DNA of 64,000 nucleotides from an uncultured Candidatus Saccharibacteria bacterium (GTDB taxonomy: Bacteria; Patescibacteriota; Minisyncoccia; Phycocordibacterales; WO2-35-19), in NCBI GenBank assembly GCA_964630525.1, contig CAZVUY010000003.1, forward strand, positions 48,699 through 112,698. Reading direction: 5' to 3'. Shown one piece after another: positions 2 through 61,620 of this stretch. Position numbers and translations under genes: made by a program. Within the stretch, counting starts at the first letter, position 1. The number at the start of each line of letters is the position of its first letter. Under the pieces are notes generated by a model. That model was not told the DNA's origin and did not search any database. It saw only the letters and a program-made list of their open reading frames with translations.

Positions 2-814
2 TTTAACCAAGAGGCTTATGAAAAAGTGAAAAATCTTGGCGGACTTTTCGTCGTTGGTACTGAACGGCACGATGCTCGTCGTATCGACAACCAGCTCCGT
101 GGGCGTTCCGGCCGACAAGGTGATCCGGGCGAAACCCAATTTTTCGTCTCAATGGAGGATCATATCATGCGAGTTTTTGCGGCTGATACGGTGAAAAAAA
201 TGATGGGTCGGCTCGGTATCCCAGAAGATCAACCGATCGAGAACAAACTGATCACTCGTTCGCTCGAAAGCGCTCAGGAAAAAATCGAAGGACTCAATTT
301 TGATGCTCGCAAACACGTTTTGGAATATGATGATGTGCTCAATTTTCAACGCAAAGTCTTTTATGAAAGGAGGAGAAAGGTGTTGATGGAGCCAGCGAGC
401 GGTGAAGAAGCGGAGAGGGTGCGCCAGGTCAAACTCCAGGTTTATGATATGTTCTGGGTCGATCATTTGGAGATGATGGATTATCTGCGTAGTAGCGTGA
501 ACTTGCGCGCTTATGGTCAGCGCGACCCACTAGTCGAGTACAAGAAAGAGGGTTTGCGTTTGTTTAAAGAGATGGAAGCCTCAATTCAAAACACGATCGA
601 CGAAAATCTGCAAAAGTTGGCTGAAGCTCAGAAAACCACGGTGCTTTCGAATGTTCAAAAACAGGCGGAGCTGATTACAGACTCTGATAATTCTTCTAAT
701 CTCCCTAACCCTCTTTATTCTAAAGAGGGGACTGGAGGGAACAAGAACATTGGTCGCAACGACCCATGCTGGTGCGGCTCTGGTAAAAAATTCAAAAAAT
801 GCCACGGGGCTTAA
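2..814 (+). CDS. secA: Preprotein translocase SecA, C-terminal fragment (5' end lies outside the window)
   Basis: The ORF has no start inside the window. The SecA C-terminal region ends in the zinc-binding tail CWCGSGKKFKKCHGA. Confidence 0.85.
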   Translation, partial: FNQEAYEKVKNLGGLFVVGTERHDARRIDNQLRGRSGRQGDPGETQFFVSMEDHIMRVFAADTVKKMMGRLGIPEDQPIENKLITRSLESAQEKIEGLNFDARKHVLEYDDVLNFQRKVFYERRRKVLMEPASGEEAERVRQVKLQVYDMFWVDHLEMMDYLRSSVNLRAYGQRDPLVEYKKEGLRLFKEMEASIQNTIDENLQKLAEAQKTTVLSNVQKQAELITDSDNSSNLPNPLYSKEGTGGNKNIGRNDPCWCGSGKKFKKCHGA

Positions 815-38992: not shown

Positions 38993-39086
38993 ATAAACCC
39001 AGACTTGCATTTTTTGCAACAATAATGTAGTATCCTGCCGGGCCTCTTTATGAGGCTTAATTTGATCTTTGAATTTGGAGGATAGT

Positions 39087-43627: not shown

Positions 43628-44407
43628 ATGGGCTTTATATTATTCGACATAGGAGGAACCAAAATAAGGATGGCATATTCAGACGATGGCGAGAGTTTTG
43701 AAGAACCGAGAGTGATTGAGACACCCAAAAATTATGAAGAAGGTAAAAAAATTTTTGTAGAGCTTGCAAAAGATTTGACCAAAGGTAGGGAGGCAAAAAA
43801 ATTTGTAGGTGGTATGAGTAGGAGCGTTGCTGGCTGGGGTTATGGTTGGTTTAAGTCAGATTTGGAGAACCTGGTACAGGCAGAAATCTATCTTGAAAAC
43901 GATGCCGCCATGGTTGGGCTTGGTGAAGCGGTTTATGGCGCTGGCAGAGGTTTTGATATTGTGGCATATGTTACAGTTTCTACCGGAGTGGGCGGTGCGC
44001 GGATTGTTGGTGGTAAAATCGACGAGAAGGCAGTGGGCTTTGAGCCAGGTAAGCAGATAATCGATATCGATGCGGGTGACAGACTTGAAGATTTGATATC
44101 TGGCAAGGCTCTAGAAGAAAAGACCGGTAAGTCTCCAAAGGAAATAACTGATCCGAAAGTGTGGAATGAGCATGCCTACTTCCTCGCGGTGGGACTCAAC
44201 AATGTTATCGTTGGCTGGTCGCCAAACGTGGTGGTGCTAGGTGGCTCCATGATAACCGGCGATCCAGCTATTCCTCTCGACAAAACCGAAGAATATCTTA
44301 AAGGTTTGTTGAAAATTTTCCCAGAATTGCCGGCGATCAAAAAAGCAAAGCTTGGCGACTTTGGCGGGCTCTGGGGCGCACTGACATACCTAAAAGCTAA
44401 AAATTAA
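43628..44407 (+). CDS. ROK-family sugar kinase (glucokinase-like)
   Basis: DIGGTKIR N-terminus and a Gly-rich ROK core. Adjacent to pgi. Confidence 0.7.
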   Translation: MGFILFDIGGTKIRMAYSDDGESFEEPRVIETPKNYEEGKKIFVELAKDLTKGREAKKFVGGMSRSVAGWGYGWFKSDLENLVQAEIYLENDAAMVGLGEAVYGAGRGFDIVAYVTVSTGVGGARIVGGKIDEKAVGFEPGKQIIDIDAGDRLEDLISGKALEEKTGKSPKEITDPKVWNEHAYFLAVGLNNVIVGWSPNVVVLGGSMITGDPAIPLDKTEEYLKGLLKIFPELPAIKKAKLGDFGGLWGALTYLKAKN

Positions 44408-44433
44408 AAGCATAAAGTTAAAAGTTTATAAAC

Positions 44434-44666: not shown

Positions 44667-45239
44667 ATGAAGAAAATCTGCATCATTATCGGTCACCCGG
44701 ACACCATAAGCTTCAACCACCAATTGGCCGAATCTTACGCAGAGGGGGCGAGAGAAAAAGGTCATGAAGTGAGGGTTACCAACTTGGGCGATCTATCTTT
44801 TGATCCAGTGCTGCACCACGGTTATCGCGAAATTCAGGAGTTGGAGCCAGACCTGAAAAAGATCCAGGAGGATATAAAATGGTGTGAGCACCTAGTGATC
44901 ATCTACCCATCTTGGTGGTCGACGATGCCGGCTATCCTGAAAGGTATGTTTGATCGTATTTGGTTGCCGGGTTTTGCTTTTCATTTCCACCCAAACGGTT
45001 TGTGGTGGGACGGTTTGCTCAAAGGTCGCACCGCGAGAGTCTTTGTGACTTCCGATGCTCCACCCATCTTCACTCGCATTATCTTTGGTGATACGACCAA
45101 TGAAATCCGCAAAGGTATTTTGTGGTTTGCTGGCCTCTCTGTCTCAGTCAAAAAGATTGGCCCTCTCAAAAGAATTTCAGAAGAGAAGAAGCAAAAGTGG
45201 CTCAACAAGCTCAAAAAGTGGGGGAGCAAGGTTTACTGA
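44667..45239 (+). CDS. Flavodoxin-like NAD(P)H dehydrogenase (quinone) family protein
   Basis: KKICIIIGHP N-terminus and the HLVIIYPSWW pattern. Confidence 0.65.
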   Translation: MKKICIIIGHPDTISFNHQLAESYAEGAREKGHEVRVTNLGDLSFDPVLHHGYREIQELEPDLKKIQEDIKWCEHLVIIYPSWWSTMPAILKGMFDRIWLPGFAFHFHPNGLWWDGLLKGRTARVFVTSDAPPIFTRIIFGDTTNEIRKGILWFAGLSVSVKKIGPLKRISEEKKQKWLNKLKKWGSKVY

Positions 45240-45251
45240 TACCTATAATTT

Positions 45252-45779
45252 TTAAGCAATATTTTTAAGGAGAGCACCGACGAAATAAGCAACTAAAGCG
45301 GCGATAGTGCCGATGGTACATGTTTGCAACGCAGTTTTCCAGCTTGGAGTGTGAGATACTTTGCCTCTAATCAAACCGATTATGAAAAACGTGATAAGAG
45401 TTAGTATTGAAGCGATGAGGAATTCATCTTTAATTGTTTCCGGTGAAAAATAGCTTATGACGTAAGCAACGAGGGGAATCGAACCGACAGTGATAAAAGA
45501 GAAAAAGGTGGCCAGGGCTGTTTTCCAGGGTTTGGTATGTGAATGTCCGCTTTCGTGCTTGGTTTGGTCTTGGTGCGATTCTTCGGAGAGATAATTTGAA
45601 GAGGCCATAGAAAAGCCGTCGGCGAGTACATTCGAAAAGCCCAAAATTAAAACAATGCCCGAGTCTAGTCTGGCTCCGGCGATACCAGCAATAATAGCGA
45701 AGGTGGTCACGGCGCCATCGATCGAACCGTAAACAAACTCCGGCAAATATTTCCAAAATTTTTTCTTCAATCGTTCCAT
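45252..45779 (-). CDS. VIT1/CCC1-family membrane protein
   Basis: GSIDGAVTTFAIIAG motif. Confidence 0.7.
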   Translation of the reverse strand: MERLKKKFWKYLPEFVYGSIDGAVTTFAIIAGIAGARLDSGIVLILGFSNVLADGFSMASSNYLSEESHQDQTKHESGHSHTKPWKTALATFFSFITVGSIPLVAYVISYFSPETIKDEFLIASILTLITFFIIGLIRGKVSHTPSWKTALQTCTIGTIAALVAYFVGALLKNIA

Positions 45780-46108
45780 TTACGAAATAATAACACAAAA
45801 CCCGAGGAGCAAAAGCTCAACTCGGGTGTTTTGTTTATCGCGGGACGAGCTGGTTTAGATCAAAGCCAGCTTCGAGATTTCTGCTTGTATTACTCATCAC
45901 TGCGTTTGCGGTGTTGAGTGTGTTGACAAGCAGGTCTTCTCCGGCGACAAACACTTCGGACATAAGGAACTTGAGGATTATTATCGTTAACCCAAGTCCC
46001 AAAGCTTTTCTAATCATCCGATTAAAATTGCGGGGGCTAAATGTAGTGGCCCGGACCCCAAAATTTGCACACTGATCTTGTATAATTAGTCACCTAATAT
46101 ACAAGTAT

Positions 46109-46363
46109 ATGAAAAAGCATCGCATCGCTCCCGAAGTTAAGGAGCAAATCATTAATCGCATCAAGAACGATGGTTTAACTGTCGTTCAGGCTGCCAAAGA
46201 TCACGGAGTGGCCGAGGGCACCATCTATACTTGGATCGCCAGGAAAACGGACGAGAATGTATCTCTATCAGACTTTCTCAAGATTAAAAGAGAAAATGAT
46301 CAGCTCAAGATGCTTCTGGGCGAGATCACCCTCAAGCTGTCCGAAACCCAAAAAAAGAAGTGA
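46109..46363 (+). CDS. IS3 transposase OrfA (HTH)
   Basis: HTH LTVVQAAKDHGVAEGTIYTW and a leucine-zipper-like tail. Confidence 0.8.
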   Translation: MKKHRIAPEVKEQIINRIKNDGLTVVQAAKDHGVAEGTIYTWIARKTDENVSLSDFLKIKRENDQLKMLLGEITLKLSETQKKK

Positions 46364-47184
46364 GGGAAACCAGCCTGACCACCAAAGCTCTTCGGGCCCG
46401 AGAGTTAGGTGTGTCACTGCGTAGTCTGTACTACAGACCAAAGAAACCGGACAAAGATTGGCTTCTGAAGTGTCAGATTGAATCTGTTCTGCGAGAACAT
46501 CCATCATATGGATCGAGGAGAATATCAATCCATCTGAATATGAATCGCAAACCGGTGAAGCGAGTGATGAACCTTTTTGGCATCAAAGCATACAGACGTA
46601 GAGGCAGAAAATGGAAGAAAACCAAGAATATCAGGGTGATATATCCAAACCTGCTCCTGACAGAATATCCAGCATATCCTAACCATATCTGGACAGCAGA
46701 TTTCACTCACTTAAATTTTCAAGGAAAAATCATATACATCGCCACCGTGATGGATTTGTTCACCAGGCGGATTGTCGGCGTAGCGGTGTATACGAATCAC
46801 GCTGTTCAGTTGGTATTAGCTGCTCTAATGAACGCAATATTGACCAACCAAAGGCCGGAGATATTCCACTCCGACAACGGCAGTGAATACAACGCGGATG
46901 TATTCATCGAGGCTCTAACAAATATCGGAACAATGATTTCCAGATCTGCTCCAGGTTGTCCGTGGGAGAATGGCTACCAAGAGAGCTTCCACTCACAGTT
47001 TAAGGTGGACTTTGGTGATCCTGCTAGATTCAAAAGTCTCGGTGAGTTGGTCTACGAAATATATCAGACGATCTACCGCTACAATCACATGAGGATTCAT
47101 TCAGCTCTCAAGATGCCGCCACAGAAATTTGCAGATTTAGCGGCAGCAGAATACAATTTAGAATACAAGATTCGTGTGCAATGA
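46360..47184 (+). CDS. IS3 transposase OrfB (DDE integrase core)
   Basis: DDE triad at WTADFTH, HSDNGSEY and ENGYQESFH. Probably expressed as an OrfAB fusion by a -1 frameshift. Confidence 0.8.
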   Translation: MRETSLTTKALRARELGVSLRSLYYRPKKPDKDWLLKCQIESVLREHPSYGSRRISIHLNMNRKPVKRVMNLFGIKAYRRRGRKWKKTKNIRVIYPNLLLTEYPAYPNHIWTADFTHLNFQGKIIYIATVMDLFTRRIVGVAVYTNHAVQLVLAALMNAILTNQRPEIFHSDNGSEYNADVFIEALTNIGTMISRSAPGCPWENGYQESFHSQFKVDFGDPARFKSLGELVYEIYQTIYRYNHMRIHSALKMPPQKFADLAAAEYNLEYKIRVQ

Positions 47185-47488
47185 ATGGGGTCCAGTACAG
47201 GTCGACATAAAAGCAAAGAGCCCCAAGTCTTTCAACTTGGGACCCCGCAGTTGATGTCATTTGGCACTACTGCCAAACGTGGACTCATTCTATACCAAGT
47301 TAGATGAAAAATCAATGATATTCACAGCTTTACATTTAAATCCCAAAATATGGCTTCAGAACTAAGCATCGGCATAGTCTAGATACTACACGTAACTATT
47401 TTGGCCAACAGAAAGGTATTCCATTTGAATTTGTTGTAAAACTTCCTCCTCGCCGCAAGCTATTTGGTAATCCGTAATCTGGCATTCT

Positions 47489-47524
47489 AATTAAAATAAA
47501 AAGCCCCCAGTTTCCTAGGGGCTT
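47489..47524 (-). terminator. Rho-independent terminator
   Basis: AAGCCCC...GGGGCTT stem with a T-rich run on the minus strand. Confidence 0.45.
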
Positions 47525-47643
47525 CTTGCTAACGAGAGGTTAGGTTCTTATTCTCTGACTTAATCTCAAACTACGAGAGAGTCAGAATTAGCCTTTTAGG
47601 AAATCCCGAAGGACTTCACCTTGTCGTTTGCAAGTAATGAGTA

Positions 47644-47901
47644 CTAATCGTACTCGAAGTGTTCCTTGTTCTGCGCTACCGACTCAGGAGCCGGCGGCTT
47701 TGCAAGGGAAGCAATTTGAGCGTCGAAGAGTTCACGATAAACTTCCGTGACGAACTCGACGGACTCCTCGTAAGTGATACCGATGGCTTTGGCCTCGTTG
47801 GCCAGCTCTCGGTTGAGACCTCGCCGTAGCTTGATCCCATTCTCACGAAGTTGCTTCTTCATCAGCAATAGAGCAATTTGCCCTTTGCGTTCTTCTGTCA
47901 T
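47644..47901 (-). CDS. Hypothetical protein (85 aa)
   Basis: ATG at 47901 has an AGGAGGTG RBS; the longer track ORF starts at 47952. Confidence 0.4.
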   Translation of the reverse strand: MTEERKGQIALLLMKKQLRENGIKLRRGLNRELANEAKAIGITYEESVEFVTEVYRELFDAQIASLAKPPAPESVAQNKEHFEYD

Positions 47902-48014
47902 GTACATCACCTCCTTTCCGAAGTGATCTAGGTATAGTATAGCATAATCCATCCGCTATTGCAAGTTTTATTAAAACATGGTTGAATTATGCGCGGAAAA
48001 GGAGATTTTACACA

Positions 48015-48809
48015 ATGCAGAAGAAAGTTGGTCCCTACGTTGGAGTCACAGGATTCATGTCCCGCGCTGAAGTAAATGAGGCGCTTGCTATGGTCCCTGA
48101 GGGATCAAAGCATCGTCTCATGGTCGGAGTTCTTATTAGCTCCAAGACATTCGCTGGTTTGCCAAACAAATGGCCCGGCCGGTATCCGAAGAAAGAGGTC
48201 GCGGCAGACATCTTCGCTGATGATCCGCGAGCACTCAACCTTATCCACTACAACACTGACAACCGTAACCAGCTTCATCATGAGCTCGTCGAGATCACGC
48301 GATTCATTGGTCCCGATAAGTTCGATGGATTCCAGATCAACATGCGATGGCCGTGTGCTACGGAACTACGCAATTACCAGCACATTTTCCCTGACAAGTT
48401 GCTGGTAGTGCAGGTTGGTGGCGGCGCACTTGAAGATGTGGGACGGATTGGTGGTCATCTGGGAGGTATTCTTTACCTCGTCTATGACCACCGCTCATGC
48501 TGTAGTTGGATGATCGATTCAGTTCTTATCGATCCAAGTGGTGGTAAGGGAATACCACTGAATACCGAGGAAGGAGCTGATCATCTTCGCGATGTCCGCG
48601 ATCACTACAAGACAAAAGAAGTTGGTATCGGCATTGCCGGTGGTCTTGGTCCGGATACGCTTCATCTCATCGAGCCGCTTGTTCAGGAGTTTCCGAACCT
48701 GAGCATTGATGCAGAAGGCAGGCTTCGCACCCAAGATGACCAGTTGGATATGTTAAGGGTCAAACTCTACCTTCAACGCGCATTCGAAATGTTCAATCGT
48801 CGGGCCTAA
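48015..48809 (+). CDS. Hypothetical TIM-barrel-like protein, possibly TrpF/PRAI-like
   Basis: Weak IDPSGGKG...GIAGGLGPD...IDAEGRLR pattern. GC-rich. The ORF track starts at TTG 47982; ATG at 48015 has a GGAG RBS. Confidence 0.3.
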   Translation: MQKKVGPYVGVTGFMSRAEVNEALAMVPEGSKHRLMVGVLISSKTFAGLPNKWPGRYPKKEVAADIFADDPRALNLIHYNTDNRNQLHHELVEITRFIGPDKFDGFQINMRWPCATELRNYQHIFPDKLLVVQVGGGALEDVGRIGGHLGGILYLVYDHRSCCSWMIDSVLIDPSGGKGIPLNTEEGADHLRDVRDHYKTKEVGIGIAGGLGPDTLHLIEPLVQEFPNLSIDAEGRLRTQDDQLDMLRVKLYLQRAFEMFNRRA

Positions 48810-49122
48810 TAGCCCACTCTCGCGTCAGGCCAAGTGTCTGGCGCGAGCTTTCTTTTTATCCAAAATTTAATTACACTCTATAAATCATGGCCAATATTTC
48901 TGTTGGCACGGGAGGGACGCAATCGAGCATTTTCATAACCCAATGGCTTCTAAGAAAATTCCCTTCTTTTTCGAGATAAAATTACCGCCTCCACTCCGTA
49001 GGGGAATCGACTACGGCATTACCAAGGACAACCGCTGGGTCTTTACCGTAGATAAAAAAGAATAGTCCGACTTCTCGGGTAAGGTTTACTAACAAACAAA
49101 TATAAGATAAATTACCTTTGGT

Positions 49123-49557
49123 ATGAAAAATTGTGTATATTGCACGTTACCGGAAATCAAGGAAAGACAGATTATCGAGAATGATCTGGCTTGGGCTTTC
49201 TTAACCAACATCCCAATCACCCCCGGCCACACACTCGTTATACCGAAGAGGTGTGTCGCAAAGTATGAGGACCTGACCACAGAAGAAAAGTCGGCGATTG
49301 AAGAACTTCGAGTGAAGATCGTCGATGTCCTTACAAAGCTCTACGGAGCTGAAGGGTTCAATATCGCTTGGAACGTGAACAAGATCGCTGGCCAGTCGGT
49401 CCCTCATTTTCACTTGCACATTGTGCCTCGGAAGGAAGGCGACGAAGGTATCTACGAATACGAGCCGAGGAAGTTTTTATATCGGCCGGGAAGTCGCGAG
49501 ACAACTCCGGAAGATGAACTCAAAGCCACTTCGGAGGAAATACGAAATGCACTGTAG
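49123..49557 (+). CDS. HIT-family hydrolase
   Basis: Histidine triad HFHLHIVPR. Confidence 0.8.
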   Translation: MKNCVYCTLPEIKERQIIENDLAWAFLTNIPITPGHTLVIPKRCVAKYEDLTTEEKSAIEELRVKIVDVLTKLYGAEGFNIAWNVNKIAGQSVPHFHLHIVPRKEGDEGIYEYEPRKFLYRPGSRETTPEDELKATSEEIRNAL

Positions 49558-49599
49558 TACAAAGGGCCGCGGAGAATATCCACGGCCCTGTTCTTTTGT

Positions 49600-50171
49600 T
49601 CATAGAGCAAGTTCCTTTTTGACAACTTCCACGATCTTCGGCCAATCCCGTTCGTGGAAAGCCATATACTCGCGAATGGCATGTTGCACTTGGCGCCAGC
49701 CGCCATCTCCGTTACTTCTCGGATAGACTTTGCCGGTCTTCATGTCGAACACCTCGCTTCCCATAAAAGTAGCAACACGAGCGGTATGCAAAGCCGGTTT
49801 TTCCATGTCTGGATACTTGAGCGGTTTGTGGGCTCGCCATAGTTCACAACCCAGATTGTCATTTTGGTCTTCTCCTCGACAGAGAAAGAACGATTCGATA
49901 CCGAGGTCATGCAGCTCTTTGGCAAAAGCGAGCTGTTTGTGCGAGATACCGGGGATCTTGCCGGGCAGCCAGCAATTTTCGAAGATAATGGCCCGAAGTT
50001 TCCCATCAACCAAACACTGCTTCAGCTTGGTTAGTTCTTCTTCTGGATTGGTGTCGAAGATGTCGTTGTGCAGGCAAAAGGTATGCAGCCCTTGGCCAGT
50101 TTGGGCGGTTTCCGTAAGTTGCCCAGTTCCGGACGAATAGCTGGTAGTCGCCAGTATTTTGAGTTTTTTCA
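49600..50171 (-). CDS. Hypothetical protein (190 aa)
   Basis: ATG at 50171 has a GGAAGGAG RBS. Moderately GC-rich. Confidence 0.4.
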
Positions 50172-50262
50172 TCAGAACTCCTTCCGGGAGTAAAGCTACC
50201 TCCAAAACGCCACTATGTAAATAGCTTTCTTTTTATCTAAATTTTGGTTAAGCTCAATACCA

Positions 50263-52332: not shown

Positions 52333-52340
52333 GCTCCCTA

Positions 52341-52377
52341 CAACAAAAAACCGCTTTGAATCAGCGGTTTTTTGTTG
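52341..52377 (+). terminator. Rho-independent terminator
   Basis: AAAACCGCT-TTGAATC-AGCGGTTTT plus TTTTGTTG. The outer 15-bp arms also pair. Confidence 0.6.
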
Positions 52378-52389
52378 TATATTTTGGTT

Positions 52390-54768
52390 ATGGATAATTA
52401 TAATCACCAAGAAATAGAAAAGAAGTGGCAAGAGAAGTGGAAGGCAGAAAAAATGTACGAAGCCAAAGATGATACTTCTAGAGATAAGAATTTTTATCTT
52501 CTTTTTGAATTCCCGTATCCATCGGGCAATCTGCATATAGGTCATTGGTACGCTTTTGCGATGCCTGATATTTTTGCTCGAATGAAGCGAATGCAGGACT
52601 TCAATATTCTTTTTCCGATTGGTTTCGATGCATTTGGTTTGCCGGCAGAGAACGCGGCGATCAAGCATGGCCTTGATCCTAAAAAGTGGACTTACGAAAA
52701 TATAGCCTACATGGAGCAGCAGCTCTCGAGTATGGGCGGCTCTTTTGATTGGTCGCGCAAGGTGGTGACTGCAGATCCAGAGTATTACAGGTGGACTCAG
52801 TGGTTGTTTTTGAAATTTTTCAAAAAAGGTTTGGCTTATAAGAGGCGGGCCAATGTTAACTGGTGTCCCAAAGATCAGACCGTGCTTGCCAATGAACAGG
52901 TGATAGCGGGCAAATGTGAAAGGTGCGGGACTGAGGTGGTGCAGAAAGATTTGGAGCAATGGTTTTTCAAAATTACGGATTATGCCGATCGCTTAGTTGA
53001 CGATCTGGCAAATCTAAATTGGCCTGAGCCCATCAAGGACGCACAGAGAAATTGGATAGGGAAGTCAGAAGGATCGGAAATAAGCTTTGAGCTTAAAGCT
53101 AAAAGCTTAGAGTCCGAACAGCTCCAAGCTCCAAGCTCCAAGCTCTCAGCTATTAATATATTCACCACCAGGGCAGACACTCTTTTGGGTGCTACTTACC
53201 TTGTTTTGGCGCCGGAGCATCCAGCAATTAAAAATCTAGCATCTAGCATCCAGAATCTAGCAGAAGTGGAAAAATATATTGAAGCAGTAAAGAAAAAAAC
53301 GGAAATAGAAAGGACTGATGCTAAAAAAGAAAAAACTGGTGTGGAGTTGAAGGGGGTAAAGGCTATCAATCCAGCGACTGGGGAAGAAATACCGGTTTGG
53401 GTGGCTGACTATGTACTTGGTGGCTATGGGACTGGGGCGGTAATGGCTGTACCAGCTCATGATGAGCGCGATTTTGATTTTGCTCAAAAATACAATTTGC
53501 CGATCAAGGAAATTACTCCTGATTGGGGTTTGTTGGAGCAGTTTGGCAAAAAAGTCACTAAATATAAATTGCGAGATTGGTTGTTGAGCCGCCAGCGCTA
53601 TTGGGGAGTGCCAATCCCGATCGTTTATGATCCGCAGGGTCAGCCGCAGCCAGTCCCTGAAGAGTATTTGCCTTGGCTTTTGCCGGAAGACAATATCGAC
53701 TTTACTCCTAGAGGTGCTTCACCACTCGCTTCATCTGCCGAACTAAAAGAAAGGGTGGTAAAAATTTTTGGTGAAGGCTGGACTCCAGAGTACGACACAA
53801 TGGATACTTTTGTTGATTCCTCTTGGTATTTTCTGAGGTACACCGATCCCAAGAATAGTCAGGAGTTTGCTTCTCAGGAGAAAATGAATGCTTGGTTGCC
53901 AGTCGACAAATATTCTGGCGGAGCCGAACATACGACGATGCATCTTTTGTATTCGCGCTTTTTCCACAAAGCTCTTTTCGATATGGGTTTGGTCAAAGAT
54001 TCAGAACCATATTTAAACCGAATGAATCGGGGTTTGATCCTCGGTCCCGATGGTCAAAAGATGAGCAAATCAAAAGGTAATGTGATTGATCCTGATGAAC
54101 AAGTGACTCGAGTTGGGGCTGACACGGTCCGCATGTACCTAGCCTTTATTGGGCCCTACAACGAGACCGGCCAATATCCGTGGGACCTAGGCGGGGTCGC
54201 TGGTGTTAGAAGATTTTTGGAAAGAGTGTGGAGAGTAAGCTTAGAGCTTAAAGCTAAAAGCTCAGAGGAAGAAAAGCTCTCAGCTCCAAGCTCTCAGCTC
54301 TCAACTCTTTTGCATAAAACTATAAAAAAAGTTACTGAAGATATCGAAGCTTTCAAATTCAACACCGCCATTTCGGCACTCATGATATTGCTGAATGAGT
54401 TGGAGAAACAGGTCACTAATAACCAGCCACAATTAACCAAACAAACATTCGAAGTATTTTTGAAGTTGTTGGCCCCGTTTGCACCACACATAACTGAAGA
54501 GATCTGGCATAATTTTGGGTATCAAAATTCTATTCATCTCGAAAAGTGGCCAGAATACGATGAAGCTGAAATCGTCGAGGATAAAGTGACAATATCAGTA
54601 CAGATCAATGGCAAAATCAGGGCTAAGTTTGAGGCCAGCTCTGATATTTCGGAGCAAGAGGCCAAAGATAGAGCGCTTATGATGCCGGAGGTGACCAAAT
54701 GGCTAGGGAGTGGGGAAGTTAAAAAGACAGTCTTTGTACCTAAAAAGATCATTAGTTTTGTGGTATAA
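52390..54768 (+). CDS. leuS: Leucyl-tRNA synthetase
   Basis: HIGH motif (PYPSGNLHIGHWY) and KMSKS present. The track ORF starts at TTG 52372; ATG at 52390. Confidence 0.9.
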   Translation: MDNYNHQEIEKKWQEKWKAEKMYEAKDDTSRDKNFYLLFEFPYPSGNLHIGHWYAFAMPDIFARMKRMQDFNILFPIGFDAFGLPAENAAIKHGLDPKKWTYENIAYMEQQLSSMGGSFDWSRKVVTADPEYYRWTQWLFLKFFKKGLAYKRRANVNWCPKDQTVLANEQVIAGKCERCGTEVVQKDLEQWFFKITDYADRLVDDLANLNWPEPIKDAQRNWIGKSEGSEISFELKAKSLESEQLQAPSSKLSAINIFTTRADTLLGATYLVLAPEHPAIKNLASSIQNLAEVEKYIEAVKKKTEIERTDAKKEKTGVELKGVKAINPATGEEIPVWVADYVLGGYGTGAVMAVPAHDERDFDFAQKYNLPIKEITPDWGLLEQFGKKVTKYKLRDWLLSRQRYWGVPIPIVYDPQGQPQPVPEEYLPWLLPEDNIDFTPRGASPLASSAELKERVVKIFGEGWTPEYDTMDTFVDSSWYFLRYTDPKNSQEFASQEKMNAWLPVDKYSGGAEHTTMHLLYSRFFHKALFDMGLVKDSEPYLNRMNRGLILGPDGQKMSKSKGNVIDPDEQVTRVGADTVRMYLAFIGPYNETGQYPWDLGGVAGVRRFLERVWRVSLELKAKSSEEEKLSAPSSQLSTLLHKTIKKVTEDIEAFKFNTAISALMILLNELEKQVTNNQPQLTKQTFEVFLKLLAPFAPHITEEIWHNFGYQNSIHLEKWPEYDEAEIVEDKVTISVQINGKIRAKFEASSDISEQEAKDRALMMPEVTKWLGSGEVKKTVFVPKKIISFVV
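53083..53152 (+). repeat. In-frame repeat element, copy 1, inside leuS
   Basis: AAGCTTTGAGCTTAAAGCTAAAAGCTTAGAG followed by (AGCTCCA)x3-AGCTCTCAGCT. Translated as ELKAKSLE...APSSKLSA. Confidence 0.6.
54236..54305 (+). repeat. In-frame repeat element, copy 2, inside leuS
   Basis: AAGCTTAGAGCTTAAAGCTAAAAGCTCAGAG is 29/31 identical to copy 1 and is followed by AGCTCTCAGCTCCAAGCTCTCAGCTCTC. Translated as ELKAKSSEEEKLSAPSSQLS. Confidence 0.6.
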
Positions 54769-55938: not shown

Positions 55939-57168
55939 ATGCCAGATTTTATACCCCCAGAGATAGGGAATGCTCTTGTTCAAGCTTTCAAATATATCTA
56001 CTTAGCGATGCCTGTTTGGTTGCCTGTTTTTTTCCTCGTTACTCTTTTTAATGCCTGGATTTACTATCGCCGCTCAGCTTATTTCGCTGGCTTGGGGAGT
56101 ATTTTGCTTGAAATCAAATTGCCGAGAGAAGTATTTAAATCACCTGCGGCGATGGAGATCGTGCTTCAGGTTTTGCATCAAGGTGGTGGGGAGAGTACCT
56201 GGATCGATCGTCTTTGGCTTGGCAAAAAAAGAGATTGGTTTTCTCTCGAGATAGTCTCTTCTGGAGGTAAAGTGAGTTTCTACATTTGGACTCGACCCAA
56301 GTATCGCAACTTGATCGAGTCTCAGATCTATTCTCAATACCCAGGTGTCGAGGTTTATGAAGTCAAAGACTATACTTTGCCGTTTTTCTACAATCCGGAG
56401 GCCAATGAAGTTTGGGCTTGCGGCTTTGAGTTGGCTGAAGCTGATCCGTATCCCATTAAGACCTATATTGATTATGGTCTGGAGAAAGATCCTAAAGAAG
56501 AGTTCAAGATTGATCCGATGACCTCGATGATCGAGTTCCTTGGTTCGATCGTGAGTGGTCAGAATATTTGGATCCAAATATTAGTGCGAGCTCACAAGAA
56601 ACGTCGTGTTCTCGATCTTTTTGATGAAAAGGAAGATGCTTGGAAGGATGAGGCCAAAAATCAAATAAAAACAATCATTGAGAGCATGAAGGTTGAGGGT
56701 GCTAGTTTTGGTCGGATTCCAACCAAAGGTGAAGCAGATAAAATCGCCGCTTTAGAGAGGAGTGTCACCAAACTACCTTTTGATTGTGGTATCCGAGCCA
56801 TCTATTTGACTGATAAAGAAAAATTTAATTCAGCCAACATTGGCGGTATTACCGGGGCTCTCAAACAGTATGGTTCAAATGGTTTGAATGGATTCAAGCC
56901 GGCTGGTGGGATGACTATCTTCGATTACCCTTGGCAAGAGTGGTTTGGGGCCAAAGAAAAACTAAAACCAATTTTTCTTGATGAGTATAAACTCAGAAGA
57001 TTTTTTCACTCACCTTATGTTGGTAAAAAGTTTTATCACAAACCGTTTGTACTGAATGCTGAAGAGTTGGCCACAATTTTCCATTTTGTTGGATCGGTCG
57101 CCATGACACCAACCTTCGAAAGAGTTAATTCTAAGAAAGCTGAAGCACCTTCCAATTTACCGATATGA
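55939..57168 (+). CDS. Hypothetical membrane protein
   Basis: N-terminal TM helix. The track ORF starts at TTG 55933; ATG at 55939. Confidence 0.4.
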   Translation: MPDFIPPEIGNALVQAFKYIYLAMPVWLPVFFLVTLFNAWIYYRRSAYFAGLGSILLEIKLPREVFKSPAAMEIVLQVLHQGGGESTWIDRLWLGKKRDWFSLEIVSSGGKVSFYIWTRPKYRNLIESQIYSQYPGVEVYEVKDYTLPFFYNPEANEVWACGFELAEADPYPIKTYIDYGLEKDPKEEFKIDPMTSMIEFLGSIVSGQNIWIQILVRAHKKRRVLDLFDEKEDAWKDEAKNQIKTIIESMKVEGASFGRIPTKGEADKIAALERSVTKLPFDCGIRAIYLTDKEKFNSANIGGITGALKQYGSNGLNGFKPAGGMTIFDYPWQEWFGAKEKLKPIFLDEYKLRRFFHSPYVGKKFYHKPFVLNAEELATIFHFVGSVAMTPTFERVNSKKAEAPSNLPI

Positions 57169-58271
57169 TAAAAATTTCAAATTTCAAAACTCAAATCTCA
57201 AAATTGTGGAGAAGATTTTTAGCCGAGACAGAAAGCCTGCGGGTGATTGTCGGCACCAATCCAAAAGTTATACTTTGGCGACTCCATATTTTCGGTTACT
57301 CCCCATTTCTTTCAAGGCATATTTTCAAAATCGCAGCTACTGGTCTGGTACTTTTCTCATTCTTTTTTAGTTTCTATATTTTTTGTTGGCGTTCACCACG
57401 ACCATTCCCTGAAAATGCATTAGTTACTGTTGAACGAGGTGAGCCTCTTTCTCAAATAGTGAACGATTTTGCTAGCAAAGGGGTGGTTCGTTCGTCATTT
57501 TGGCTTAGGGTTTTTATCACTATTTCAGGTGGACAAAATAGGGTGATTGCCGGAGATTATTATTTCCCAAAAGCAAAAAATGTTTTTAGTGTTGCTAAGG
57601 TGTTGCATCAGGGTAAATTTGGGCTTATCCCTTTTCGAGTCACTATCCCGGAAGGTCTTTCCTCAATGGAAATTGCTGACATCTTAGATGAACAGTTACC
57701 CGCTTTTAATTCAAGTGATTTTATAAGCGAGGTTGATAGCGGTGATTTTGAAGGTTACTTATTCCCCGATACTTACTTTTTTATGCCCAATACCAAGGCG
57801 GGCGATGTCATCTTGACCATGCGCGAGAATTTTGCGCGACAGGTGAGTACTTATGAAGCTGATATTGCAAAGTTTGAAAAGCCGCTGCATGAGGTGGTGA
57901 TCATGGCTTCTATCATTGAAGATGAGGCTAACAAGTCACTTGCCGATAAAAGGATTATTTCCGGTATTCTTTGGAAGCGGATCAGGATGGAAATGCCAAT
58001 GCAGGTGGATGCTCCTTTCAAATATTACAACGGCAAGCACAGCTACACTTTGACCAACGAAGATTTAAAAGAAGATCATCCTTACAATACTTATATAAAC
58101 AAAGGTTTGCCGCCGACGGCGATCAGCAACCCGGGGATTGATTCTATTCGCGCCGCTATCACCCCGACCCCGACTAATTACCTTTACTTCATGTCTGACA
58201 AGTCAGGTAACCTTTACTACGCTTCCGACTTTGAGGGGCATCAGGTGAATAGGGAGCGGTATTTGAGGTAG
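57165..58271 (+). CDS. mltG: Endolytic murein transglycosylase MltG (YceG-like)
   Basis: N-terminal TM helix and a YceG-like domain with GLPPTAISNPG. Confidence 0.75.
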   Translation: MIKISNFKTQISKLWRRFLAETESLRVIVGTNPKVILWRLHIFGYSPFLSRHIFKIAATGLVLFSFFFSFYIFCWRSPRPFPENALVTVERGEPLSQIVNDFASKGVVRSSFWLRVFITISGGQNRVIAGDYYFPKAKNVFSVAKVLHQGKFGLIPFRVTIPEGLSSMEIADILDEQLPAFNSSDFISEVDSGDFEGYLFPDTYFFMPNTKAGDVILTMRENFARQVSTYEADIAKFEKPLHEVVIMASIIEDEANKSLADKRIISGILWKRIRMEMPMQVDAPFKYYNGKHSYTLTNEDLKEDHPYNTYINKGLPPTAISNPGIDSIRAAITPTPTNYLYFMSDKSGNLYYASDFEGHQVNRERYLR

Positions 58272-58299
58272 CGATTAAAATATTGAAAGATTTAAAGAT

Positions 58300-58350
58300 T
58301 GAAAAAATAGAAAGCGAGCCGTCCTCCGAGTACGGCTCGCTCTGGTTTAT
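58300..58350. terminator. Bidirectional terminator hairpin
   Basis: Perfect 10-bp stem AGCGAGCCGT...ACGGCTCGCT with T-runs on both strands. Confidence 0.5.
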
Positions 58351-58776: not shown

Positions 58777-60027
58777 ATGAAAAGTCAACCAAGTAGTGAA
58801 AAATTCCATAGCCCTAAAAAAGCAGGCAAGGCCCAATCGAATTTTCTACTACAAGATCAAGCGAAAAAAGGAAGGGTGTTTGTCGGACTCTCCGGTGGGG
58901 TGGACTCGGCGGTGAGTGCGGCGCTCTTAAAAAAAGAAGGTTACGAGGTGACCGGAGTTTTTATAAAGGCCTGGGACCCAGCCTCGACGTCAAACCACAG
59001 GCATATAAAATATCCGTGCACATGGAAAGAAGACAGGCGGAGCGCTATGCGAGCGGCAGCTGTTTTGGACATACCATTTTTAACTTTGGATTTGGAAAAA
59101 GAATACAAACAGGAAGTGGTGGACTACATGATAAAAGAATACAAAGAGGGTAAAACTCCAAACCCGGATGTTATGTGCAACAAAGAAATAAAATTTGGCC
59201 ATTTTTTGAAGTTCGCTTTAAAAAATGGAGCAGATTTTGTGGCGACCGGGCATTATGCTCAAAAGCTAAAAGCTAAAAGCTTAGAGCTTAAAGTAAAAAT
59301 TTCCAATTCCAAACCTCTTAGCTCCAAGCTTTTAGCTCCAAGCTATATCTTGAGTGAAGCGAAAGATAAAAACAAAGATCAATCATATTTCCTCTGGACT
59401 CTTACTCAAGAGCAGCTTGCTCGTACGCTCTTTCCGGTCGGTCATCTTGAGAAAGAAGGGGTGAGGAAGTTGGCGGTGAAATTTGGTTTGCCGCAGGCCA
59501 CTCGGAAAGACAGCCAGGGTCTGTGCTTCCTTGGCAAGATCGATATAAAAGAATTTTTGAAAGATTATTTACAATCAGCAAAAGGCGAGGTGATTAATGA
59601 AAAAGGTGAAGTGGTGGGCGAACATGATAGTGCTGTATTTTATACGATTGGGGAGAGGCATGGTTTTAGGGTTACCCAAAAGAGGGACAACGAAGTGCCG
59701 CTGTATGTGGTGGCTAAAGATATAGTTAAAAATACCATCACTGTTGCACCCAGGTTGAATACTGGAGAAAAGAAAGAGAGAGTTAGACAAAAGATTGCCT
59801 TGTCAGATGTAAACTGGAATCAAGGCAAAGAGCCTGATTTGAAAAAGTTTTATACCGCCAGAGTGAGATATCGGGGTGAAAAAATAAAATGCCAAATTAA
59901 GATTGAGGAAGGTGGGGTGGTCGTGAGCCTAGCCAAATACCAACAAGGAGTATCTCTCGGTCAATCACTCGTTTTGTATCAGGGTGAAATTTGTATTGGT
60001 GGCGGCGTGATGTCTGAAATATTGTAA
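58777..60027 (+). CDS. mnmA: tRNA-specific 2-thiouridylase MnmA
   Basis: VGLSGGVDSAVSA PP-loop and DQSYFLW. About 30 aa N-terminal extension. Confidence 0.85.
   Translation: MKSQPSSEKFHSPKKAGKAQSNFLLQDQAKKGRVFVGLSGGVDSAVSAALLKKEGYEVTGVFIKAWDPASTSNHRHIKYPCTWKEDRRSAMRAAAVLDIPFLTLDLEKEYKQEVVDYMIKEYKEGKTPNPDVMCNKEIKFGHFLKFALKNGADFVATGHYAQKLKAKSLELKVKISNSKPLSSKLLAPSYILSEAKDKNKDQSYFLWTLTQEQLARTLFPVGHLEKEGVRKLAVKFGLPQATRKDSQGLCFLGKIDIKEFLKDYLQSAKGEVINEKGEVVGEHDSAVFYTIGERHGFRVTQKRDNEVPLYVVAKDIVKNTITVAPRLNTGEKKERVRQKIALSDVNWNQGKEPDLKKFYTARVRYRGEKIKCQIKIEEGGVVVSLAKYQQGVSLGQSLVLYQGEICIGGGVMSEIL
59262..59345 (+). repeat. In-frame repeat element, copy 3, inside mnmA
   Basis: AAAGCTAAAAGCTAAAAGCTTAGAGCTTAAAG followed by AGCTCCAAGCTTTTAGCTCCAAGCT. 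Translated as KLKAKSLELKVKIS...SSKLLAPS. The insert is about 20 aa longer than the equivalent loop in E. coli MnmA. Confidence 0.55.
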
Positions 60028-60049: not shown

Positions 60050-60886
60050 ATGAATGATGGTGTCACTATAGTCAAAGCTACGGGCGAGAGAGAAGTTTTC
60101 GATCCGCAAAAACTTCGCAATTCTTTACGTAAAGCTGGTGCGGGAGAAGAAACGACCAACAGGATCATTGATCAAATAGTTGGAGTTCTAAAAGATGGTG
60201 ATACTACCAAAGAGATTTATACTCGAGCTTTCGACCTCCTTAAACAGGAAAATGTGCCAAAGGTAACTGCTCGTTATTCCTTGAGAAATGCCATCATGGA
60301 TTTGGGTCCTTCCGGTTTTCCGTTTGAACAGTTTGTCGCTCAGATTTTCCAGGCCAAAGGTTTTGAGACTGCAACTGATTTTATTGCTCAAGGTCACTGC
60401 GCTGAACACGAGATCGATATTGTGGCTTGGAATCCAGAAAAATTGATCATGGTGGAAGCAAAGTTTCACAATATCTTCGGTATCAAGTCTGATCTGAAGG
60501 TGGCGCTTTATGTCAAAGCGCGTTGGGAAGATTTGGTAGATCAAGAATTTGATTTTGGTCACAAACGTAAATTAGATGAAGGTTGGCTTGTCACCAATAC
60601 CAAGTTTTCGGAAGCAGCGATCAAATATGCCAATTGCCGAGGAATGAAATTGGTCGGCTGGAATTATCCAGAAGATGGCAGTTTGCAAGATTTGATCGAA
60701 GATGCCAGGCTTCATCCGATCACCTGCCTCACCTCTATCAACCCGAGTGACGAAAAGCTTCTGATGGCTGCCGGTATAGTGCTCTGTAAACAGGCTAAGG
60801 ACAATCCGGATGTGGTGCTTCAAACCGGACTAAATAAAAACAAGTTAGATAAAATGTTGGAGGAGATTGAAATTATTTCTAACTGA
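60050..60886 (+). CDS. ATP-cone domain fused to an Mrr-like PD-(D/E)xK restriction-endonuclease domain
   Basis: N-terminal ATP-cone IVKATGEREVFDPQKLRNSL. Nuclease motif EIDIVAW...LIMVEAKF. Confidence 0.6.
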   Translation: MNDGVTIVKATGEREVFDPQKLRNSLRKAGAGEETTNRIIDQIVGVLKDGDTTKEIYTRAFDLLKQENVPKVTARYSLRNAIMDLGPSGFPFEQFVAQIFQAKGFETATDFIAQGHCAEHEIDIVAWNPEKLIMVEAKFHNIFGIKSDLKVALYVKARWEDLVDQEFDFGHKRKLDEGWLVTNTKFSEAAIKYANCRGMKLVGWNYPEDGSLQDLIEDARLHPITCLTSINPSDEKLLMAAGIVLCKQAKDNPDVVLQTGLNKNKLDKMLEEIEIISN

Positions 60887-61620
60887 TGGCCTTTTATCGC
60901 AAAAAACTTTATGATCCGAAAGCAAAGGAGGCTTTCAAAATAAGCCGGTCCAAAATCGACCTTTTCATCCAATGCCCGCGTTGTTTCTACCTTGATCGTC
61001 GGCTGGGGGTGTCGAGACCACAAGGTTTCCCTTTCAACCTAAACAGCGCAGTCGATATTTTGCTTAAAAAAGAATTTGACTTGCATCGAGCTCAAAAAAC
61101 ACCGCATCCTCTCATGGATGCTTATGGAGTCGAGGCAGTACCTTTGGCTCATCAAAACATGGACACCTGGAGAGATACCTTCAAAGGAGTAGAGTTTTTC
61201 CATGAACCAACCAATTTTATTGTTTTCGGCGGGGTAGATGATGTTTGGATCAATCAAAATCAGGAGCTTATCGTAGTTGACTACAAGGCGACTAGTAAAG
61301 ATGAAAAAGTAAATTTGGATGCCGAGTGGCAAGATGGTTACAAGAGGCAAATGGAAGTTTACCAATGGCTCTTGCGCCAAAATGGTTTTAAGGTTAGTGA
61401 CACTGGGTATTTCGTTTACGCCAATGGCAAAAGAGACAGGGAAGCCTTCGATGGGAAACTAGAGTTTGATGTGACCCTGATTCCTTACACTGGTTCCGCT
61501 GATTGGATAGAAAAAACTTTGCTAAAAATGAAAGAATGTTTAGATGGAGAAATACCAAAATCTTCTCCGGTTTGCGAGTATTGTGCTTATATAAATAATG
61601 TAAATAATTCTTTAAAATAG
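60886..61620 (+). CDS. PD-(D/E)xK nuclease with a Cas4/RecB-like Cys cluster
   Basis: N-terminal CPRC, ELIVVDYKAT and C-terminal CEYC. Its start overlaps the previous stop. Confidence 0.55.
   Translation: MAFYRKKLYDPKAKEAFKISRSKIDLFIQCPRCFYLDRRLGVSRPQGFPFNLNSAVDILLKKEFDLHRAQKTPHPLMDAYGVEAVPLAHQNMDTWRDTFKGVEFFHEPTNFIVFGGVDDVWINQNQELIVVDYKATSKDEKVNLDAEWQDGYKRQMEVYQWLLRQNGFKVSDTGYFVYANGKRDREAFDGKLEFDVTLIPYTGSADWIEKTLLKMKECLDGEIPKSSPVCEYCAYINNVNNSLK

Follow-up and report, generated by a model that had tools for sequence, protein, structure and literature searches.

The DNA analysed here is a 64-kb stretch of an uncultured bacterial genome (contig CAZVUY010000003.1; the whole stretch is called the window below), and our subject is a short hairpin-forming repeat with AGCT-centred units that lies in frame within two of its genes. 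The leucyl-tRNA synthetase gene, leuS (52390..54768, plus strand; match to the T. thermophilus LeuRS 1h3n, E=2.8e-221), hosts two copies of this AGCT element, c1 and c2; an in-frame TTG is also present 5' of its start, at 52372. The gene for tRNA 2-thiouridine synthase, mnmA (58777..60027, plus strand; match to 2hma, E=2.7e-81), hosts a third copy, c3, together with an N-terminal hairpin insertion of another family. The LeuS homologs are from Patescibacteria (Parcubacteria, Zambryskibacteria and Paceibacteria-type metagenome-assembled genomes), and this homology identifies the host genome as patescibacterial, of Parcubacteria type. The window was compared with the syntenic loci L001, L003, L237 and L244-L250 of relatives. 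LeuS is 98% identical to that of the window in L003, 87% in L001, 70-75% in L237, L244, L245 and L246, and 62% in L247, which belongs to a complete 692-kb genome; L250 is 94% identical at the nucleotide level in its mnmA flanks, and L248 and L249 have MnmA proteins of 59-63% identity. Elements were present in independent assemblies (Logan SRR12487014 and SRR12897917, JGI 3300045396, NCBI GCA_038065655.1 and ENA ERZ27275549).

The copies follow a general plan in which an A-rich arm, (AGCTWWR)x4, is separated by a spacer of 7-24 nt from a C-rich arm, (AGCTCYM)x4, the whole forming an imperfect palindrome. Copy c1 (53082..53152, plus strand, 71 nt) has an A-rich arm at about 53083-53113 that reads AGCTTTG AGCTTAA AGCTAAA AGCTTAG, the spacer TCCGAAC, and a C-rich arm at 53120-53151 made of three AGCTCCA units, AGCTCTC and AGCT. 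In c2 (54237..54308, plus strand, 72 nt) the A-rich arm spans 54238-54268, the spacer is GAAGAAA and the C-rich arm spans 54275-54306. Copy c3 (59258..59347, plus strand, 90 nt) carries three AAAAGCT units, TAGAGCT and TAAAG in its A-rich arm (59261-59293), a spacer of about 24 nt that is 7-periodic as well (AATTTCC AATTCCA), and a right arm (59318-59344) of AGCTCCA AGCTTTT AGCTCCA AGCT. An initial sequence-only reading of this DNA had reported the two leuS copies and a further one in mnmA; all three exist, and the left modules of c1 (53082-53112, AAGCTTTGAGCTTAAAGCTAAAAGCTTAGAG) and c2 (54237-54267, AAGCTTAGAGCTTAAAGCTAAAAGCTCAGAG) are identical at 29 of 31 positions, as it had stated. The AGCTCCA/AGCTCTC repeats that it had called hexamer-like are heptamers. 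Tandem Repeats Finder (TRF) gave period 7 for both arms of all copies, the spacing of AGCT is exactly 7 nt, and in a stringent scan for arrays of periods 6-15 only period 7 yielded any in the window (3, versus 0 in 30 shuffles). With up to 3 mismatches, the 19-mer core has 6 matches in the window versus 0.05 expected, and AGCTNNNAGCTNNNAGCT has 15 versus 0.17 expected, every one within c1-c3; these counts are so far above expectation that chance is no explanation for the copies. The tetranucleotide as such occurs 254 times in the window, with about 240 expected from composition, and avoidance or enrichment of a restriction site was accordingly rejected.

Each copy has a single open sense frame, which is the frame of its gene, and stops close the other two frames; they lie in the A-rich arm, and c3 has further ones in its spacer and right arm. 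The predicted translations are SFELKAKSLESEQLQAPSSKLSA for c1, SLELKAKSSEEEKLSAPSSQLST for c2 and QKLKAKSLELKVKISNSKPLSSKLLAPSY for c3, with ELKAKSLESEQLQAPSSK as an example of the element peptide predicted from the open reading frame (ORF). The proposal that all three are read in frame therefore stands, whereas the common ELKAKS...APSSKLS peptide that went with it does not hold for mnmA, where the peptide (KLKAKSLELKVK...LSSKLLAPS) is a permuted relative of that in leuS. The C-rich arm (AGCTCCA)n of c1 and c2 has no stop in any of the three frames and in each of them gives SSKLQAP in some circular permutation; as 3 x 7 nt make up 7 codons, the peptide of this arm does not depend on the frame. 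Sharing a frame is thus weak evidence in itself, since a heptamer array gives the same 7-aa repeat in any frame and c1 is apparently a copy of the element at the site of c2. An intein, an intron or a bypass element was rejected since the frame runs on with neither stop nor interruption and the size does not fit, and a CRISPR array or a diversity-generating retroelement because the architecture does not match.

As judged from structural alignments and a model, all three sites are domain junctions or loop tips at which the length of homologs varies. Relative to 1h3n, c1 is an addition of 13 aa at V241-I243, where the beta-hairpin entering the CP1 editing domain has its tip, and in an AlphaFold2 (AF2) model it falls in predicted disordered or low-confidence residues 240-251 between strands 225-237 and 254-259. 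Copy c2 occupies the variable helix-loop-helix linker from the catalytic to the anticodon-binding domain, which is no longer than the T. thermophilus linker; the model places it in a loop, 625-634 (low confidence at 625-631), between helices 600-624 and 635-653. This LeuS model is of moderate quality (mean pLDDT 67.9, from 22 sequences) and served for local loop assignment only. Copy c3 adds about 19 aa relative to the S. pneumoniae MnmA 2hma, in the beta-hairpin between HYA and KDQ(S/T)YFL. The expectation that the inserts would map to variable loops is borne out by the 1h3n and 2hma alignments and by the AF2 model. Many patescibacterial LeuS proteins (homologs P0007-P0120) are 930-1180 aa long with extra domains, fused or inserted, among them NUDIX (PF00293), a DUF559/PF18741 endonuclease-like domain and an alpha/beta-hydrolase.

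The two leuS sites have different histories across the relatives. At site 2, the position of c2, 7 orthologs whose identity is 70-98% have the AGCT element; each arm there has four units and the spacer measures 7-19 nt. L247 has a different 7-periodic tract, (ACAAATT)n, in its place. At columns with a conserved amino acid, mean pairwise codon identity is 0.76 in the element versus 0.51 in the rest of leuS, and the codon is the same in all six sequences at 4 of 8 such columns in the element versus 58 of 395 elsewhere, the former being a small sample. Ser is always encoded by AGC and Ala always by GCT, and the variation is almost wholly between wobble-compatible states. This excess of codon identity suggests that, irrespective of the protein, the AGCT cores are retained or are homogenised again and again. 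The distribution indicates that the site-2 copy is old and not a recent insertion. The sequence-only reading had named a peptide conserved without the nucleotide repeat as evidence that would count against it; the orthologs of 70-88% identity share peptide and repeat alike. Its simple picture of a selfish insertion nevertheless fails at site 2, where those same orthologs have the repeat in common and keep its AGCT cores at synonymous positions.

Site 1, the position of c1, is more variable. The window, L003 and L250 carry c1; L001 and L237 have GC-rich hairpins of the CCCCTCCCCTTGGCAAGGGGAGAGG type; L244 and L246 have other heptamer tracts; L247 has a different AGCT-heptamer two-arm element with the A-rich arm downstream; and L245 has a short loop only, EFEIKNNKEKISVF. 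Copy c1 agrees with each site-2 allele at 55-62 of 70 positions, while site-2 alleles of different lineages agree among themselves at 51-58 of 70, and the spacer and right arm of c1 are almost identical to the site-2 allele of L001. These comparisons suggest that c1 was copied from an ancestral leuS site-2 sequence into a position 1.15 kb upstream in the same gene.

The most striking result is at mnmA, where identity to the window in the gene flanks and in the cassette, the segment that corresponds to c3, run in opposite directions. Nucleotide identity of flanks and cassette is 0.96 and 0.37 for L003, 0.94 and 0.52 for L250, 0.80 and 0.53 for L001, 0.66 and 0.46 for L244, 0.65 and 0.73 for L248, and 0.62 and 0.77 for L249. 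In the approximately 400 nt 3' of the cassette, at most one position distinguishes L003 from the window, and the same is true of L250; despite this near-identical background the cassettes of the three are unrelated hairpins with sharp borders. The window has the AGCT element c3; L003 has a nested GC-rich hairpin that is translated as PLSLPRRGG; L250 has (AGTAGCY)n...(GATGCTG)n, an allele also found in L001; and L244 has a perfect 16-bp palindrome. One GC-rich family occurs at two genes, at mnmA in L003 and at leuS site 1 in L001. L250 and L001 also share a mosaic block 5' of the mnmA cassette, which points to active recombination in the population. Directly 3' of mnmA, at 60050-61620, lie genes for an ATP-cone plus Mrr_cat protein and a PD-(D/E)XK (Cas4-like) nuclease, a pair kept in every relative examined (L001, L003, L244, L247, L248 and L250).

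A wider sample extends this variation. Among 121 Patescibacteria cluster representatives, the MnmA segment from TGHY to KDQSYF is 15-63 aa long (median 32), and 28 of the 121 segments are at most 21 aa, which is its length in the solved homolog. At least six recurrent peptide families were found in it, which include ASPQSRRGRDEVRVRL, PTSDVW..HPMLGYQL, KLPKKVLEKSLA..EDFSERSF, KVASSQYLVASRK..TLMLDAGYLLL and TSPP..PLSLxRRGG..GEVV; some of the families were inspected as DNA, and all of these are hairpins. In P0189, P0215 and P0236 the segment is composite, with one cassette apparently nested within another. The AGCT family is present at this site in the window and in P0126, P0127 and P0156 (59-63% identity) and not in the three closest homologs (90%, 90% and 74%); its patchy distribution does not follow the gene tree.

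Other sites in the window show related sequences. The N-terminal insertion of mnmA (58789..58860, plus strand) is a 72-nt in-frame hairpin, PSSEKFHSPKKAGKAQSNFLLQDQ, of a family distinct from the AGCT element, with arms AGTAGTGAAAAATTC and GAATTTTCTACTAC and an imperfect direct repeat, AAAGTCAA / AAGATCAA, at its flanks. It is present in the window and L250 and absent from L003 and L001, which read MKSQ|AKKGRVF, and its fold is stronger in the antisense than in the sense strand (-21.2 versus -13.1 kcal/mol). A period-7 array (TRF), AAATTTC AAATTTC AAAACTC AAATCTC (57172..57202, plus strand), encodes the N-terminus, MIKISNFKTQISK, of a YceG-family gene (57165-58271, Pfam) and is absent at the same position in L001. 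In SecA, the in-frame, GC-richer palindrome CTCCCTAACCCTCTTTA / TAAAGAGGGGACTGGAGGG (691..747, plus strand) lies in the flexible linker from the SecA_SW domain to the SEC-C zinc motif and folds at -23.2 kcal/mol on either strand; its resemblance to the GC-rich hairpins at leuS site 1 and mnmA of the relatives suggests that it belongs to the same phenomenon. A degenerate A-rich heptamer array, TAAAAGC TAAAAAT TAAAAGC ATAAAGT TAAAAGT (44391..44426, plus strand), at the 3' end of a ROK-family gene (43628-44407, Pfam) may be a decayed array like the left arm, its membership being uncertain. An array of four ATCTAGC units inside leuS (53234..53262, plus strand; NLASSIQNLA) was rejected as an insertion, as orthologs hold a homologous peptide without the periodicity. 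Over about 25 kb of synteny with L001 and L003, sharp-edged hairpin or heptamer replacements in conserved genes were found only at leuS site 1, the two mnmA sites and the YceG N-terminus; other stretches of low identity in that synteny are coding and intergenic, and include one strongly diverged whole gene at about 39070-39790.

The elements fold more stably in one strand than in the other. A hairpin in the 5' module, which the sequence-only reading had pointed out, does exist (14-nt arms, 93% complementary), but the dominant fold instead pairs the left arm with the right arm; in c3 the arms are 30 nt long and 80% complementary. The sense folds of c1, c2 and c3 have predicted energies of -28.2, -22.7 and -27.0 kcal/mol (z -4.8, -1.4 and -5.5), and the antisense folds -40.4, -38.4 and -39.3 kcal/mol (z -6.2, -4.7 and -5.6), with near-continuous stems of about 30 bp. 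The antisense minimum free energy folds of c1-c3 have 6 G.U pairs each and the shorter sense folds 0-1, the sense strand placing A opposite C where the antisense strand pairs G.U. In a scan of 90-nt windows over the 64 kb, the antisense hairpins, at -39 to -44 kcal/mol versus a mean of -16.7 (sd 6.3), are among the most stable. When 11 two-arm instances of the AGCT element were folded, the antisense strand was the more stable in all, by 10-17 kcal/mol in nine of them, by 5.8 in L250 leuS site 1 and by 1.6 in L001 leuS site 2, with 4-7 G.U pairs in antisense versus 0-4 in sense. The AGTAGCY family of L001 and L250 has the opposite strand preference. A C-to-T deamination bias was rejected as the source of the A.C/G.U asymmetry, since the usual bias of the leading or coding strand would predict the opposite polarity. 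Rfam 15 gave only chance-level, sub-threshold miRNA and snoRNA matches on the elements; a gathering-score search of the whole window returned two tRNAs and a LOOT RNA only, and no hairpin family.

Arrays of AGCT heptamers are not confined to this setting. When 185,579 species genomes were scanned for AGCT units, four in succession with a 7-nt period (pattern AGCTNNNAGCTNNNAGCTNNNAGCT), at least 120 matches were found, and among those listed are Acidobacteriota (many), Selenomonadaceae, Cyanobacteria, Bacteroidota, Planctomycetota, Pseudomonas, Omnitrophota and two Patescibacteria. Among these listed matches (AGCTNNN)n is very common in Acidobacteriota/Terriglobia (for example, L006 5173-5249, L038 3619-3700, L087, L090 and L103), is often built as two inverted arrays round a spacer, and often lies just 5' of starts, within a few bases of the ribosome-binding site or start codon (L007, L011, L041, L052, L065 and L092). 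From the listed sequences, (AGCTNNN)n arrays look like a general bacterial repeat class that is mostly intergenic, of which we know of no description. The suggestion that the element persists only in frame therefore fails for the wider class, as the arrays of other phyla look mostly intergenic. In about 200 kb of Patescibacteria loci, a leuS-centred sample, all arrays of at least three units lie within long ORFs.

Metagenomes were scanned with the pattern AAAGCTNAAAGCTN{8,38}AGCTCNNAGCTC, which plain (AAAGCTC)n arrays satisfy too; these dominate the matches listed, among which L237, L128/L228 and L205 are informative. L128 (LGVF01103719.1) has a 35-aa in-frame AGCT two-arm insert (…KSSKLKAQSSKQLTEGSKLQAPSSKL…) at aa 176 of a 422-aa ORF for an ArnB/DegT-type aminotransferase (E=2.6e-64 to 1mdo), between the conserved DAAHA and GDxxxFSF, and the genome match L051 has an (AGCTATC)4 array in frame in a patescibacterial WecG/TagA protein. 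In-frame insertion thus extends over unrelated protein genes, at two sites of leuS, in mnmA, and elsewhere in the ArnB-like aminotransferase and WecG/TagA, as judged from intact ORFs. A phmmer search of the 31-aa c1 peptide against 1.84 billion representatives gave no matches at E<=0.001, a word-indexed protein search with a 74-aa concatenate found nothing, and the two-arm pattern had no matches in viral contigs. The literature covered, which left subscription journals outside, held no account of in-frame hairpin repeats in Patescibacteria or of AGCT-heptamer hairpins, in agreement with the earlier remark that no equivalent was known for such genomes.

Several further features of the window stand apart from the elements. 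A LOOT RNA (RF03000; 22808-22923, plus strand) scores 63.2 bits versus a gathering threshold of 46.4, and no 90-nt fold in the window is more stable than the one in its region (-48.6 kcal/mol). A block of about 5 kb (~45233-50223), absent from the syntenic L001, contains an rve-type integrase ORF (46360-47184; HTH_21, rve and rve_3), two ORFs without Pfam matches and a HIT-family gene, and is probably an insertion sequence (IS) or a small island. Two intergenic period-8 arrays (13969-14006 and 58273-58304) with the common motif GATTGAAA / ATTGAAAG form a second family of repeats with a short period and have no relation to the AGCT heptamers. A perfect 17-bp inverted repeat, TACAACAAAAAACCGCT / AGCGGTTTTTTGTTGTA (52339-52379), adjoins the 5' end of leuS, overlaps the TTG at 52372 and looks like the terminator of the preceding gene. 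In L250, positions 1-1505 encode a large serine recombinase (Resolvase, Recombinase and Zn_ribbon_recom) just 5' of ychF-DUF5671-leuS, which is absent there in the window.

Given the above, we favour an explanation in which the elements are low-copy hairpin repeat DNA, translated within essential genes, with a cassette-like turnover through copying from site to site and exchange among strains; we put the probability of this reading at roughly 55%. Spread would be by copy-and-paste of existing copies, as c1 may have come from leuS site 2, and within a genome could proceed via template switching or gene conversion. Short cassettes would also be swapped between strains, by homologous recombination through the conserved flanking codons or by insertion targeted to hairpins. 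A few permissive sites may have been colonised repeatedly by unrelated hairpin families (AGCT, the GC-rich 'PLSLPRRGG' family, AGTAGCY and others), sometimes one nested in another, the outcome being hypervariable cassettes within otherwise near-identical genes. Copies would survive only in junction loops tolerant of insertions and deletions, and in the stop-free frame of the A-rich arm. The A.C/G.U asymmetry could have arisen because a strong hairpin is selected against in the mRNA and in the template of the lagging strand, the palindrome persisting in the DNA.

Several observations weigh against this explanation. Copy number is low: the 64-kb window has 3, a relative has 1 in 22 kb, and related loci have 1-2 each. 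The leuS-centred sample of about 200 kb of Patescibacteria DNA showed none that is intergenic. Such a pattern is unusual for a selfish repeat, though these genomes hold little intergenic DNA. Inspection of the flanks of c1-c3 showed neither a clear duplication of the target site nor a terminal tag that is conserved. No gene that might mobilise the elements, such as a transposase or RAYT/TnpA, was found linked to them. Pfam matched 8 of 10 window ORFs searched, none of them to a Y1/HUH transposase, this being a search of those ORFs and not a systematic Y1/HUH screen of the window; the sole transposase-like ORF known in the window, the rve integrase at 46360-47184, is of a kind not expected to move hairpins. 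The long conservation at leuS site 2, with its excess at synonymous sites, also agrees better with a functional nucleic-acid structure, or with homogenisation that goes on continually, than with neutral junk.

The hairpins might instead be functional, as mRNA or antisense-RNA structures that pause ribosomes at domain junctions, or as antisense or DNA binding sites, with the sequence replaceable. The location of all three copies at domain boundaries agrees with such a role, as do the six sequenced expanded alleles at the mnmA site, which represent four unrelated sequence types and are all hairpins, so that structure is kept and sequence is not. The synonymous conservation of the leuS site-2 AGCT cores in orthologs of 70-88% identity, the rank of the antisense hairpins among the most stable 90-nt windows of the 64 kb, and the strong G.U asymmetry kept in 9 of 11 AGCT two-arm instances point the same way. 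However, 23% of the MnmA homologs have the basal segment only (at most 21 aa) and L245 lacks an insert at leuS site 1, and these insert-free alleles argue that the hairpin is dispensable. The sense, or mRNA, fold is the weaker one and in c2 is not significant (z -1.4); the AGTAGCY family prefers the other strand; there is no Rfam match, and no promoter- or terminator-like antisense context was seen among those examined; and the nested or composite cassettes resemble insertion events. On balance we consider a functional role of this kind unlikely. Assembly or binning artefacts, in which chimeric contigs or collapsed repeats would mimic in-frame inserts, have in their favour that all sequences are metagenome-derived and that low-complexity repeats can misassemble; yet elements with intact frames recur in the independent assemblies and differ by frame-preserving point substitutions, and we judge an artefact highly improbable.

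Alternatively, nothing need be mobile if the loops grow by 7-nt slippage and quasi-palindrome template switching in AT-rich, repair-poor genomes, with the AGCT heptamers arising convergently. That (AGCTNNN)n is ubiquitous in unrelated phyla speaks for this, and other motifs have expanded in loops as well, namely (AGTAGCA)n in L244, (GYAGTCA)n in L246, (ACAAATT)n in L247 and the array at the YceG N-terminus; the left end of c1 even overlaps native codons and could have arisen with few changes, GAATTTGAAATTAAA -> AGCTTTGAGCTTAAA. Slippage does not readily explain why the left arms of c1 and c2 are identical at 29 of 31 positions while the spacer and right arm of c1 are nearly those of the L001 site-2 allele, why the AGCT element occurs at mnmA in relatives of 62-65% identity and not in those of 94-96%, why whole cassettes are replaced with sharp borders in a near-identical background, or why one GC-rich family is common to two different genes. 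We therefore regard convergent growth as rather improbable. An extension of the favoured explanation, that Patescibacteria have a system of interchangeable translated hairpin cassettes at fixed junction sites (MnmA, LeuS, probably SecA, and others) that are swapped faster than point mutation by a mechanism not yet described, is offered only tentatively. Were it true, it would imply either dedicated structure-specific, hairpin-targeted insertion or recombination, or diversifying selection on a nucleic-acid feature, and the machinery that makes or recognises such cassettes would have its signature in the 7-nt AGCT periodicity and the conserved antisense G.U hairpin.

If translated hairpin DNA does turn over as cassettes in this way, the ultra-small genomes of the candidate phyla radiation (CPR)/Patescibacteria, usually deemed streamlined and poor in mobile DNA, would tolerate and exchange such DNA in their most conserved enzymes. 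This would be a second, independent case resembling the Rickettsia palindromic elements (RPEs), in another phylum and with another repeat architecture, and would let one study, as in an experiment made by nature, how peptides encoded by palindromes are accommodated by proteins at domain junctions. For telling strains apart, the cassettes would be very fast markers. Cassette segments would also spoil alignments, and annotation by length, of the marker genes that CPR phylogenomics uses. The recurrence of unrelated hairpins at the same codons in strains of 94-96% identity, together with the widespread arrays, raises the mechanistic questions of what makes and what recognises 7-nt periodic palindromes.

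Among known systems, the GC clusters, double-hairpin elements and byp elements of fungal mitochondria are hairpins able to move into the coding genes of a small genome, in some cases in frame. They are organellar and GC-rich, and byps are skipped by the ribosome, whereas the frames of the AGCT elements are open and continuous with no sign of bypass. Heptanucleotide repeats of cyanobacteria, the short tandemly repeated repetitive (STRR) sequences, were reportedly described by Mazel et al. in 1990, and an STRR within the RNase P RNA gene is said to have been found by Vioque in 1997. STRRs are mostly intergenic direct arrays, such as CCCCAGT, in heterocystous cyanobacteria. The AGCT elements are likewise tandem 7-nt units, and an STRR can sit in a functional gene as a helix extension; STRRs are, however, not described as two inverted arrays translated in protein genes, and the AGCT elements are intragenic, patescibacterial and built on an AGCT-centred unit. 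The term STRR is mentioned in passages of PMC2858038. PARCELs are dyad-symmetric coding sequences that are translated and have been suggested to move between genes and genomes (PMC2996958). They form tandem arrays of a 25-residue domain in ORFs of surface or unknown function and lack heptamer periodicity, while the AGCT elements are single elements of 23-29 aa per locus with a 7-aa sub-period in conserved enzymes; the two are set apart here by description rather than by hidden Markov model.

The AGCT elements resemble repetitive extragenic palindromic (REP) sequences, REPINs and transposable elements of the miniature inverted-repeat type (MITEs), including intragenic ERIC, BOX and Correia-type elements, as short, non-autonomous, hairpin-forming repeats. 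Passages of PMC3733652 and PMC2817692 describe REPs as 20-40 bp, extragenic, high-copy sequences with a GTAG or CGTC tag and a link to the RAYT transposase; in contrast, the AGCT elements are 70-90 nt long, intragenic, and start with AAGCTT or AAAGCT. Some MITEs form in-frame fusions, and REP hairpins are targets of further insertions, according to passages of PMC1525189 and PMC10969869. MITEs combine terminal inverted repeats with a target duplication and a parent IS, whereas an AGCT element is one whole hairpin with no flanking direct repeat; such a flank was seen only at the unrelated 72-nt N-terminal insert of mnmA (the imperfect AAAGTCAA/AAGATCAA). No parent element for the AGCT copies was found within the window, the ends of the rve integrase at 46360-47184 being uncompared.

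The closest parallel is with RPEs, palindromic repeats found many times in frame in unrelated housekeeping genes of a reduced genome, whose extra peptide is thought to be compatible with the fold of the protein (PMC10969869). The sequence-only reading had likened the AGCT elements to RPEs, and much of this comparison holds, for they are palindromic, in frame, translated, placed in loops tolerant of insertions and deletions, and present, absent or replaced among relatives. The 1h3n and 2hma alignments and the AF2 model likewise place them at surface loops compatible with the fold, and like RPEs they are polymorphic between relatives. The parts that do not carry over are the old site-2 copy, the low copy number in the loci sampled and the swapping of unrelated hairpins at the same sites. 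The AGCT elements are therefore RPE-like in behaviour and outside the RPE family, being set apart by lineage, length and architecture rather than by comparison with the consensus sequences of RPE-1 to RPE-10. An RPE measures about 100-150 bp, and Rickettsia, to which these elements are restricted, has tens to hundreds of copies, while the AGCT elements are 70-90 nt, patescibacterial and, in the loci sampled, low-copy, with arms of tandem heptamers and a marked asymmetry of sense and antisense pairing. One AGCT copy, at leuS site 2, is conserved at the nucleotide level in deep orthologs, and the replacement of one hairpin family by an unrelated one at the same site, not described for RPEs, gives the cassettes of leuS and mnmA a character of their own.

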